From assembly GCF_044324785.1 (NCBI RefSeq), contig NZ_CP172127.1: a stretch of DNA of 64,000 bases; one strand, written 5' to 3'. Shown one piece after another: positions 11,792 to 52,345 of the stretch; the stretch's first letter is position 1; each line of letters begins with the position of its first letter. A model generated the notes under the pieces. The model saw only the letters and a program-made list of their open reading frames with translations, was not told the origin of the DNA and made no database searches. The translations under genes were made by a program, and so were the position numbers. Origin of the DNA: Escherichia coli (GTDB taxonomy: Bacteria > Pseudomonadota > Gammaproteobacteria > Enterobacterales > Enterobacteriaceae).

Positions 11792-11964
11792 AAAGTTCTT
11801 TTGTGTTGCATTGCTGGCGTAAATGTCAGCAATGCAGCATTTCCTCACGATTCTCCTTTGACGATCGCACTTTTTGCTCGTTATGATGGCGTCGCTAGCC
11901 TCAGTAAATCCTTACTCCGGCGGTGCGCAACCTGTGCGCGTGAACCACTATCTGAATGCTCATC

Positions 11965-32290: not shown

Positions 32291-32371
32291 AAAAAAACCT
32301 GCTGGTGAGGCAGGTTCTTTTATTTACTACAGTGACGCTAACTTGCTGATTGTGCAACATTTCGTACCAAC
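32291..32371 (-). ncRNA. orzO: OrzO-like antitoxin sRNA (copy 1), ~81 nt
   Basis: Minus-strand promoter (-10 TATAAT at 32383-32378, -35 TTGCAA at 32406-32401, 17-nt spacer); terminator hairpin AACCTGC-TGGTGAG-GCAGGTT 32296-32316 followed by U-tract on minus strand; 5' 18 nt complementary to toxin 5' UTR 32520-32537. Confidence 0.6.
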
Positions 32372-32897: not shown

Positions 32898-32979
32898 TAA
32901 AAAAACCTGCTGGTGAGGCAGGTTCTTTTATTTACTACTTTGATGTTAAGTTACTGATAGTGCAACATGGCATCTCAAC
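32898..32979 (-). ncRNA. orzP: Orz-like antitoxin sRNA (copy 2), ~82 nt
   Basis: Minus-strand -10 at 32991-32986, -35 TTGCAA 33014-33009; terminator hairpin 32904-32924 with U-tract; 5' region complementary to copy-2 toxin UTR 33126-33146. Confidence 0.6.
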
Positions 32980-50365: not shown

Positions 50366-50704
50366 TTAGCGATGATAAAAAATCTCACCGTCGTAGGCTT
50401 TAATGATTTTACCGTCGGTGTCGCTGATCAACACGTATGCGCCACCCATATAGGTCCAGTGCGTTCCGGCATCAGGCGCGGGCAGATTACGTAACTGCCA
50501 CTGCTTAATGTTGTACTCATCGGTGCGGTACATCTCTGGGACGGTATCGCCTGGTTTGAAATGCTTAAAGTCAGCAATGAAACTGCTTAACTCATACTTA
50601 GAAATTCCCGAGGTATTGGTCGAACCCGCGGTGGCTGGTGCGGCCCAGGCGGCACTGGTAACCAGCAAAAGCACACCCAGCAACATCTTATTTTTAATGG
50701 TCAT
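50366..50704 (-). CDS. rcnB: periplasmic nickel/cobalt homeostasis protein RcnB
   Basis: 112 aa from internal ATG (MTIKNKMLLGVLLLVTSAAWA). Confidence 0.85.
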   Translation of the reverse strand: MTIKNKMLLGVLLLVTSAAWAAPATAGSTNTSGISKYELSSFIADFKHFKPGDTVPEMYRTDEYNIKQWQLRNLPAPDAGTHWTYMGGAYVLISDTDGKIIKAYDGEIFYHR

Positions 50705-50922: not shown

Positions 50923-51744
50923 TTATCGCATTATGCCCATAAAGCCATGCACACCCATATACACACCAACTAAGCCAATCAACAGACTGGAAAAATAGGG
51001 GGCGCGTTTAGCGAGAGTGTTAAATCCGCTCCAACGTTTTGCGACCTGCTGAACGCTGATTGCTGCGCCAACGCCTACGGTGACCAGCGTTAACGCCAGG
51101 CCGATGCTGAAACTGACGACCAGTGTTGCGCCCAGTGTCAGGGCTTTCAACTGAATGCAAATCAACAGCACGGTAATTGCTGCCGGGCAGGGGATAAGGC
51201 CACCGGTTAAGCCAAATAACAAAATTTGCCAGTTGGTGACCTCTCTACCATCAAAGCGTCGTTTAATGTCATTGGCATGGGCTCGTGCATGAGCATCCTG
51301 ATACTCCCCATGTTCGTGATGGTGATGATGTCCATGGTCGTGGTGATCTTCGTGATCGTGATGATGCTCATGATCATGCCCGTGCATATTCTCCAGCCAG
51401 TTGCGTTCGCCGCGCCAGGTACGCCAGAACATCCAGAACGCGGTGCCAATAATGATCACCGCGGAAATCAACTGGAGCCACGGTTCCGCCGACTGCGCAG
51501 TAAAGCGTTTGCTGATCACCATCCCGCCAAAGGCAATCAACCAGACCACTGCGGTATGCGAAATGGTTGCTGCCAGTCCGAGCATCACCGCCTGTTTAAT
51601 GGTGCCTTTGATGGCGATGATAAACGCCGCCATCATCGTTTTTGAGTGCCCTGGTTCCAGGCCATGAAGCGCACCAAGTAAGATGGCGCTGGGGATGAAG
51701 AACCAGGCGTTTCCTTGCTGAAGAAGAGTGGTAAATTCGGTCAT
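50923..51744 (-). CDS. rcnA: nickel/cobalt efflux protein RcnA
   Basis: 273-aa membrane ORF with His-rich loop HGHDHEHHHDHEDHHDHGHHHHHEHGE. Confidence 0.9.
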   Translation of the reverse strand: MTEFTTLLQQGNAWFFIPSAILLGALHGLEPGHSKTMMAAFIIAIKGTIKQAVMLGLAATISHTAVVWLIAFGGMVISKRFTAQSAEPWLQLISAVIIIGTAFWMFWRTWRGERNWLENMHGHDHEHHHDHEDHHDHGHHHHHEHGEYQDAHARAHANDIKRRFDGREVTNWQILLFGLTGGLIPCPAAITVLLICIQLKALTLGATLVVSFSIGLALTLVTVGVGAAISVQQVAKRWSGFNTLAKRAPYFSSLLIGLVGVYMGVHGFMGIMR

Positions 51745-51781
51745 GATAATAATTCTTAGTATTAATTCGGCAATCCGATTC

Positions 51782-51816
51782 TACTCCCCCCCAGTACCTG
51801 ATACTACCCCCCAGTA
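51782..51816. promoter_or_regulatory. RcnR operator: tandem TACT-C7/C6-AGTA sites in rcnA-rcnR divergent intergenic region
   Basis: TACTCCCCCCCAGTA (51782-51796) and TACTACCCCCCAGTA (51802-51816). Confidence 0.7.
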
Positions 51817-51864
51817 GATTAATAGTGCTATGATTTTTCATGTTCTTGTTAACCAGGTGTTGCC

Positions 51865-52137
51865 ATGTCTCATACCATCCGTGATAAACAGAAACTGAAA
51901 GCGCGTGCCAGTAAGATTCAGGGCCAGGTCGTGGCGCTCAAGAAAATGCTCGACGAGCCGCACGAATGCGCTGCAGTTTTACAACAGATTGCTGCTATCC
52001 GTGGCGCGGTAAACGGTCTGATGCGGGAAGTGATTAAAGGTCATCTGACGGAACACATCGTTCACCAGGGGGATGAGCTAAAACGTGAAGAAGATCTGGA
52101 TGTCGTTCTGAAGGTGCTGGATTCTTATATCAAATAA
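51865..52137 (+). CDS. rcnR: Ni/Co-responsive transcriptional repressor RcnR (CsoR/RcnR family)
   Basis: 90-aa [32 protein letters not shown]. Confidence 0.9.
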
Positions 52138-52227: not shown

Positions 52228-52345
52228 ACCAAACGACTCGGGGTGCCCTTCTGCGTGAAGGCTGAGAAATACCCGTATCACCTGATCTGGATAATGCCAG
52301 CGTAGGGAAGTCACGGACCACCAGGTCATTGCTTCTTCACGTTAT
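52228..52345 (+). promoter_or_regulatory. TPP (thi-box) riboswitch in thiM leader
   Basis: Canonical thi-box CTGAGAAATACCCGTATCACCTGATCTGGATAATGCCAGCGTAGGGAA immediately upstream of thiM SD. Confidence 0.85.

Follow-up and report, generated by a model that had tools for sequence, protein, structure and literature searches.

The two palindromes at positions 51782-51816 of the stretch of Escherichia coli DNA analysed here (64 kb in length and hereafter called the window) form, with a probability that we estimate at about 0.97, the tandem type-1 operator recognized by RcnR, a sensor of Ni(II) and Co(II) whose metal-free form represses both rcnA and rcnR and whose repression is relieved by nickel or cobalt. 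On our side, the assignment is based on the sequence of the sites, their identity to the K-12 operator, the presence of the cognate genes and the conservation of sites and spacing; RcnR binding, its stoichiometry and the metal-dependent release are taken from the literature on the identical E. coli sequence and on the Salmonella homologue.

Two RcnR-type sites between rcnA and rcnR

The operator pair lies in a divergent intergenic region of 120 bp (51745-51864), which also holds both promoters. It separates rcnA, encoding the Ni/Co efflux permease of 273 aa that is the gene under repression (50923-51744, minus strand), from rcnR, whose 90-aa product belongs to the CsoR/RcnR family and is a repressor that responds to Ni(II) and Co(II) (51865-52137, plus strand). 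Direct reading of the plus strand places the rcnA-proximal site 1, TACTCCCCCCCAGTA, at 51782-51796 and the rcnR-proximal site 2, TACTACCCCCCAGTA, at 51802-51816, in the context ...GATTC TACTCCCCCCCAGTA CCTGA TACTACCCCCCAGTA GATTAA..., and both sites, to which no strand is assigned, are supported by sequence, alignment with K-12 and cross-species conservation. They are 20 bp apart start to start and 5 bp (CCTGA) edge to edge, and in each of them 4-bp inverted arms (TACT/AGTA) enclose 7 nt, made up of C7 in site 1 and of an A followed by C6 in site 2. The initial annotation had reported tandem RcnR sites over precisely this span, with palindromes 20 bp apart in a 120-bp divergent region, and all of this agrees with our coordinates; its wording of the motif as TACT-(C6-7)-AGTA is right for the palindromes and inexact for the spacer of site 2, which reads TACT-A-C6-AGTA.

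On the rcnA-sense strand, site 1 is TACT-G7-AGTA and site 2 is TACT-G6-T-AGTA, and the reverse complements of the two sites (TACTGGGGGGGAGTA and TACTGGGGGGTAGTA) show no mismatches to TACT-G6-N-AGTA. The match to the known RcnR recognition pattern that had been proposed is thereby confirmed for both sites, which are flanked by rcnA and rcnR themselves. Passages in PMC7055735, PMC3902906, PMC5146963 and PMC7105576 describe two TACT-G6-N-AGTA sites for RcnR in the E. coli rcnA-rcnR intergenic region. When both strands of the 64-kb window were searched for TACT-N7-AGTA only sites 1 and 2 were retrieved (mean of 0.23 matches in shuffled sequence), and the C-tract pattern, with up to two mismatches allowed, yielded no match in the window beyond these two sites (0.18 expected).

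The flanking genes were identified with protein family models and by comparison with K-12. RcnR scored 197 bits on the NCBIfam equivalog NF011613 (cut-off 138) and is 100% identical to K-12 b2105, and RcnA scored 557 bits, above the cut-off, on the nickel/cobalt efflux transporter model NF007454 (NCBIfam) and is 99% identical to K-12 RcnA. The translated RcnR sequence contains His3, Cys35, His60 and His64, i.e. the complete H-C-H-H sensing fingerprint of RcnR (PMC11672702). The Dub-seq study in PMC6338753 reports nickel tolerance provided by rcnA and refers to rcnR as the rcnA repressor, titration of RcnR by the intergenic region being outside the scope of that paper. Compared with its K-12 counterpart, the His-rich cytoplasmic loop of the window RcnA (51297-51383) lacks one residue and differs at two others (HDHEHHH-DHEDHH in the window versus HDYEHHHHDHEHHH in K-12), and RcnA has one more substitution, G100S.

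The accessory periplasmic protein gene rcnB is located downstream of rcnA (50366-50704, minus strand), as assigned from the RefSeq annotation under the match and the reading frame, and a TPP riboswitch (52229-52325, plus strand; Rfam RF00059, 71 bits) lies directly downstream of rcnR and upstream of thiM and thiD. The window shares with K-12 MG1655 the layout yehA, rcnB, rcnA, rcnR, thiM, thiD. In another part of the window, the OrzO-P antitoxin RNA occurs twice (32291-32364 and 32899-32972, minus strand; Rfam RF02083, 89 and 92 bits), which indicates a type I toxin-antitoxin locus of the zor-orz kind in tandem arrangement, and a Peptidase-S11 cis-regulatory RNA motif was detected at 11880-11960 (plus strand; Rfam RF03039, 73 bits).

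Conservation of the operator pair

In a 141-bp alignment spanning the intergenic region, the window and MG1655 differ at two bases (51776 and 51842) that do not belong to either site; the segment 51778-51834 is free of mismatches and corresponds to the experimentally footprinted K-12 sequence. The K-12 operator has the same two sites, the same 5-bp spacer and the same place in a 120-bp intergenic region, and the differences from K-12 are these two single-base changes and an RcnA His-rich loop that is one residue shorter in the window. Comparison with the published E. coli operator, which was made through later papers citing the footprint work, returned the same pair of sites. Footprinting, ITC and reporter fusions have already been published for the identical K-12 sequence. 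The primary sources for the two E. coli sites, as summarised in those later papers, are Iwig and Chivers (2009) and Blaha and co-workers (2011).

Within the species, a 2.1-kb rcnA-rcnR region, under which the annotated features are rcnB, rcnA, rcnR, the TPP riboswitch and thiM, was matched in 5424 of 5426 complete genomes, and the 120-bp intergenic region, used as query, was found at full length with at least 95% identity in nearly all of 5360 E. coli genomes. Two strains illustrate variation at the operator. In strain WW2 (L083:2446-2588, NZ_CP081881.1) the intergenic region extends to 143 bp versus 120 bp by a 23-bp tandem duplication (TTCTACTCCCCCCCAGTACCTGA) that leaves three RcnR-type sites in a row, an arrangement that seems rare, a split match having been recorded in only 2 of the 5360 genomes. 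Strain Ecol_448 (L082:301-419, NZ_CP015076.1) has a C6 tract in site 1 (TACTCCCCCCAGTA) versus C7 in the window.

To extend the comparison across species, one genome per species was scanned with the RcnR protein, giving 80 rcnR loci of other species, in Escherichia, Citrobacter, Salmonella, Raoultella, Kosakonia, Rahnella, Hafnia, Erwinia, Edwardsiella, Morganella and one Vibrio, among others. Divergent rcnA is found upstream of rcnR in 78 of these loci and two RcnR sites in 70, with the 20-bp spacing kept in 67 of the two-site loci. Site 1 is identical to that of the window, and thus has exactly C7, in 66 of the 70, and site 2 is identical in 59. Aligning the 79 distinct rcnR upstream regions showed that the window base is retained in 80-99% of the sequences over both sites, each position of site 1 reaching at least 90% and those of site 2 ranging from 80 to 99%, as against only 0-40% at the 4 bp between the sites (51797-51800) and 10-50% in the flank at 51761-51777. 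In these aligned sequences the operator pair thus stands out as a clean phylogenetic footprint.

The exceptions are few and of several kinds. Enterobacter sp. CC120223-11, Erwinia psidii and Edwardsiella anguillarum have a single RcnR site upstream of rcnR, and Morganella retains site 1 next to a degenerate second site (ACTACCTCTTTGT), these cases being among loci L051, L072, L073 and L076-L080; therefore, the tandem arrangement is not universal. The tract of site 1 is C6 in Citrobacter sp. R56 and C8 in Enterobacter sp. R1 and Morganella Mm1, and in S. enterica arizonae (L025) site 1 carries a C-to-T change and the tract of site 2 is one base shorter; the one-base tract variants could be real variation or homopolymer sequencing errors. 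In Kosakonia, Phytobacter and some Enterobacter (L049, L050, L052, L053, L056-L058, L061, L063, L064 and L069) the intergenic region measures about 141-143 bp and the operator pair is found 20 bp farther from the rcnR ATG, at -105/-85 versus -85/-65, with the inter-site distance of 20 bp retained. Finally, in Escherichia whittamii Sa2BVA5 (L008:1300-1440) the rcnR ATG directly abuts a stretch from within the rcnA reading frame; the 5' end of rcnA and the entire intergenic region with its two operator sites are absent, which looks like either a deletion between short similar repeats (GGCGTT/GGTGTT) or an assembly artefact.

Related operators and alternative readings

RcnR recognizes a tandem of two type-1 sites in which the TACT/AGTA repeats are contacted, with 1:1 stoichiometry per site and an A-form character conferred by the unbroken G-tract (PMC3902906), and, owing to the spacing of the sites, the two tetramers sit on the same side of the DNA helix (PMC5146963); the 20 bp measured from centre to centre in the window correspond to this same-face spacing. 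In Salmonella, a 35-bp two-site fragment (rcnRAPro) binds two RcnR tetramers; the K_DNA, approximately 1.5e-7 M for the apo-protein, rises to 5.9e-6 M or more in the presence of Ni(II) and to 1.5e-5 M or more in that of Co(II) (PMC5016687). The operator of Salmonella enterica resembles that of the window in its two tandem sites over 35 bp, and both Salmonella loci of our set (L024 and L025) share the architecture of the window, but the flanking intergenic sequence has diverged.

Other repressors of the family use recognizably different sites. The FrmR operator of the E. coli frm promoter also consists of tandem type-1 sites, but these have ATAC/GTAT repeats around a 9-bp GC tract (PMC5146963), are located at another locus and respond to formaldehyde instead of metal. 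Type-2 operators of CsoR, e.g. that of Streptomyces lividans, have in common with the RcnR sites a G/C-tract pseudopalindrome with GTA dyads and an A-form-like shape that is partly recognized, but they consist of two short G/C tracts 2-4 bases apart, their AT-rich repeats are separated by some 11 bp and each site accommodates two tetramers (PMC3902906), whereas each site of the window has one unbroken C7 or C6 tract, 7 bp between repeats and a single tetramer per site. Neither ATAC/GTAT repeats with a GC tract of about 9 bp nor two tracts with about 11 bp between repeats were found at 51782-51816, where TACT/AGTA arms flank a 7-nt tract; thus, the motif definitions of FrmR and CsoR sites exclude a site of either type.

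These comparisons bear on the possibility that the palindromes are mainly operators of another repressor of the CsoR family, for instance the paralogue FrmR, and that RcnR acts at other sites. RcnR and FrmR are indeed close paralogues that both use tandem type-1 sites, and the window RcnR reaches 76 bits on the FrmR model, a score below the cut-off of 133. Nonetheless, apart from the mismatch in arms and tract length just described, the sites travel with the rcnR-rcnA pair in 78 of the 80 loci, and the homologous Salmonella fragment is bound directly by RcnR itself (PMC5016687), so that we consider an assignment to FrmR or another paralogue extremely unlikely. A still simpler explanation, that the palindromes arose by coincidence in AT-rich promoter DNA and have no regulatory role, could appeal to the shortness of the motif and to the 2 of 100 shuffled windows in which two TACT-N7-AGTA matches occurred somewhere. 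Both matches in the window, however, fall inside 35 bp, with matching C-tracts, and a 20-bp-spaced pair in the sole intergenic region that adjoins the cognate regulator gene goes far beyond such an expectation; moreover, from Escherichia through to Morganella, Edwardsiella and a Vibrio, the sites and their spacing are preserved within DNA that has otherwise diverged. This cross-species conservation excludes coincidence for any practical purpose, and the probability left to it is negligible.

It may also be asked whether the C7 and C6 tracts are slippage-prone elements that shift promoter geometry and make expression phase-variable, either besides or instead of serving as repressor sites, as the one-base tract variants of E. 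coli Ecol_448, Citrobacter sp. R56, Enterobacter sp. R1, one Morganella and S. enterica arizonae might suggest. A tract of 7 nt is short for efficient slippage, though, and site 1 has exactly C7 in 66 of the 70 two-site loci across many genera, in keeping with the full-length, highly identical intergenic region of nearly all E. coli genomes; the rare variants of plus or minus one base come from draft assemblies and are equally consistent with homopolymer sequencing errors. Phase variation through these tracts is thus very improbable, and the two palindromes are best read as the RcnR operator pair.

Candidate promoter elements at the operator and significance

Two further conserved elements are candidates for the promoters that the operator controls. 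TAGAAT on the minus strand (ATTCTA on the plus strand; 51778-51783), in which each position is 70-99% conserved versus 10-50% in the adjacent flank, is probably the -10 hexamer of rcnA and shares 2 nt with the outer half-site of site 1, and TGCTATGAT (51826-51834, plus strand), which begins 9 nt past site 2 and whose T-G-n-T-A-T-n-n-T positions are conserved across species, is the putative extended -10 of rcnR. Given this distance, the -35 region of rcnR would lie inside site 2 (approximately 51806-51811), and if the spacers are 17 bp long, rcnA and rcnR are both predicted to have their -35 regions on site 2 (approximately 51801-51811). A consensus promoter scan in the rcnA direction gave TTGCCG (51773-51768) and TATTAT (51751-51746), separated by 16 nt, as its sole match. 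This pair was rejected as the main rcnA promoter since its -10 stops 2 nt before the ATG, which allows no leader or ribosome-binding site, and its -35 falls where conservation across the region is lowest (10-40%); on the grounds of sequence and conservation, TAGAAT at 51783-51778 appears to be the better candidate for the rcnA -10.

If both -35 regions are on site 2, two bound tetramers would occlude both promoters. The title of the 2011 work by Blaha and co-workers speaks of a 'shared operator', a term that fits this occlusion. In the proposed mechanism each TACT-G6-N-AGTA site would be occupied by one metal-free RcnR tetramer, and the two sites together would cover the central part of the rcnA and rcnR promoters, which are arranged back to back, so that both genes would be repressed. 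A rise in cytoplasmic Ni(II) or Co(II) would then lead RcnR to bind the metal via His3, Cys35, His60 and His64, and the metal-bound protein, with its lower affinity for DNA, would leave the rcnA(B) efflux genes and rcnR derepressed.

The identification of this RcnR operator is correct, already known and ordinary. It carries little weight as a discovery because few metal-sensor operators of E. coli are as well characterised, and it already serves as a cobalt-inducible part in expression circuits (PMC7105576). It is tempting to speculate that the architectural variants (three sites, a single site, a degenerate site or an altered tract length) act as an evolutionary dial that would reset the threshold of Ni/Co efflux, an idea that we hold to be unlikely. 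What the present analysis adds is a modest comparative element, namely that the two-site architecture with its 20-bp spacing is nearly invariant across Enterobacterales, with few natural exceptions.
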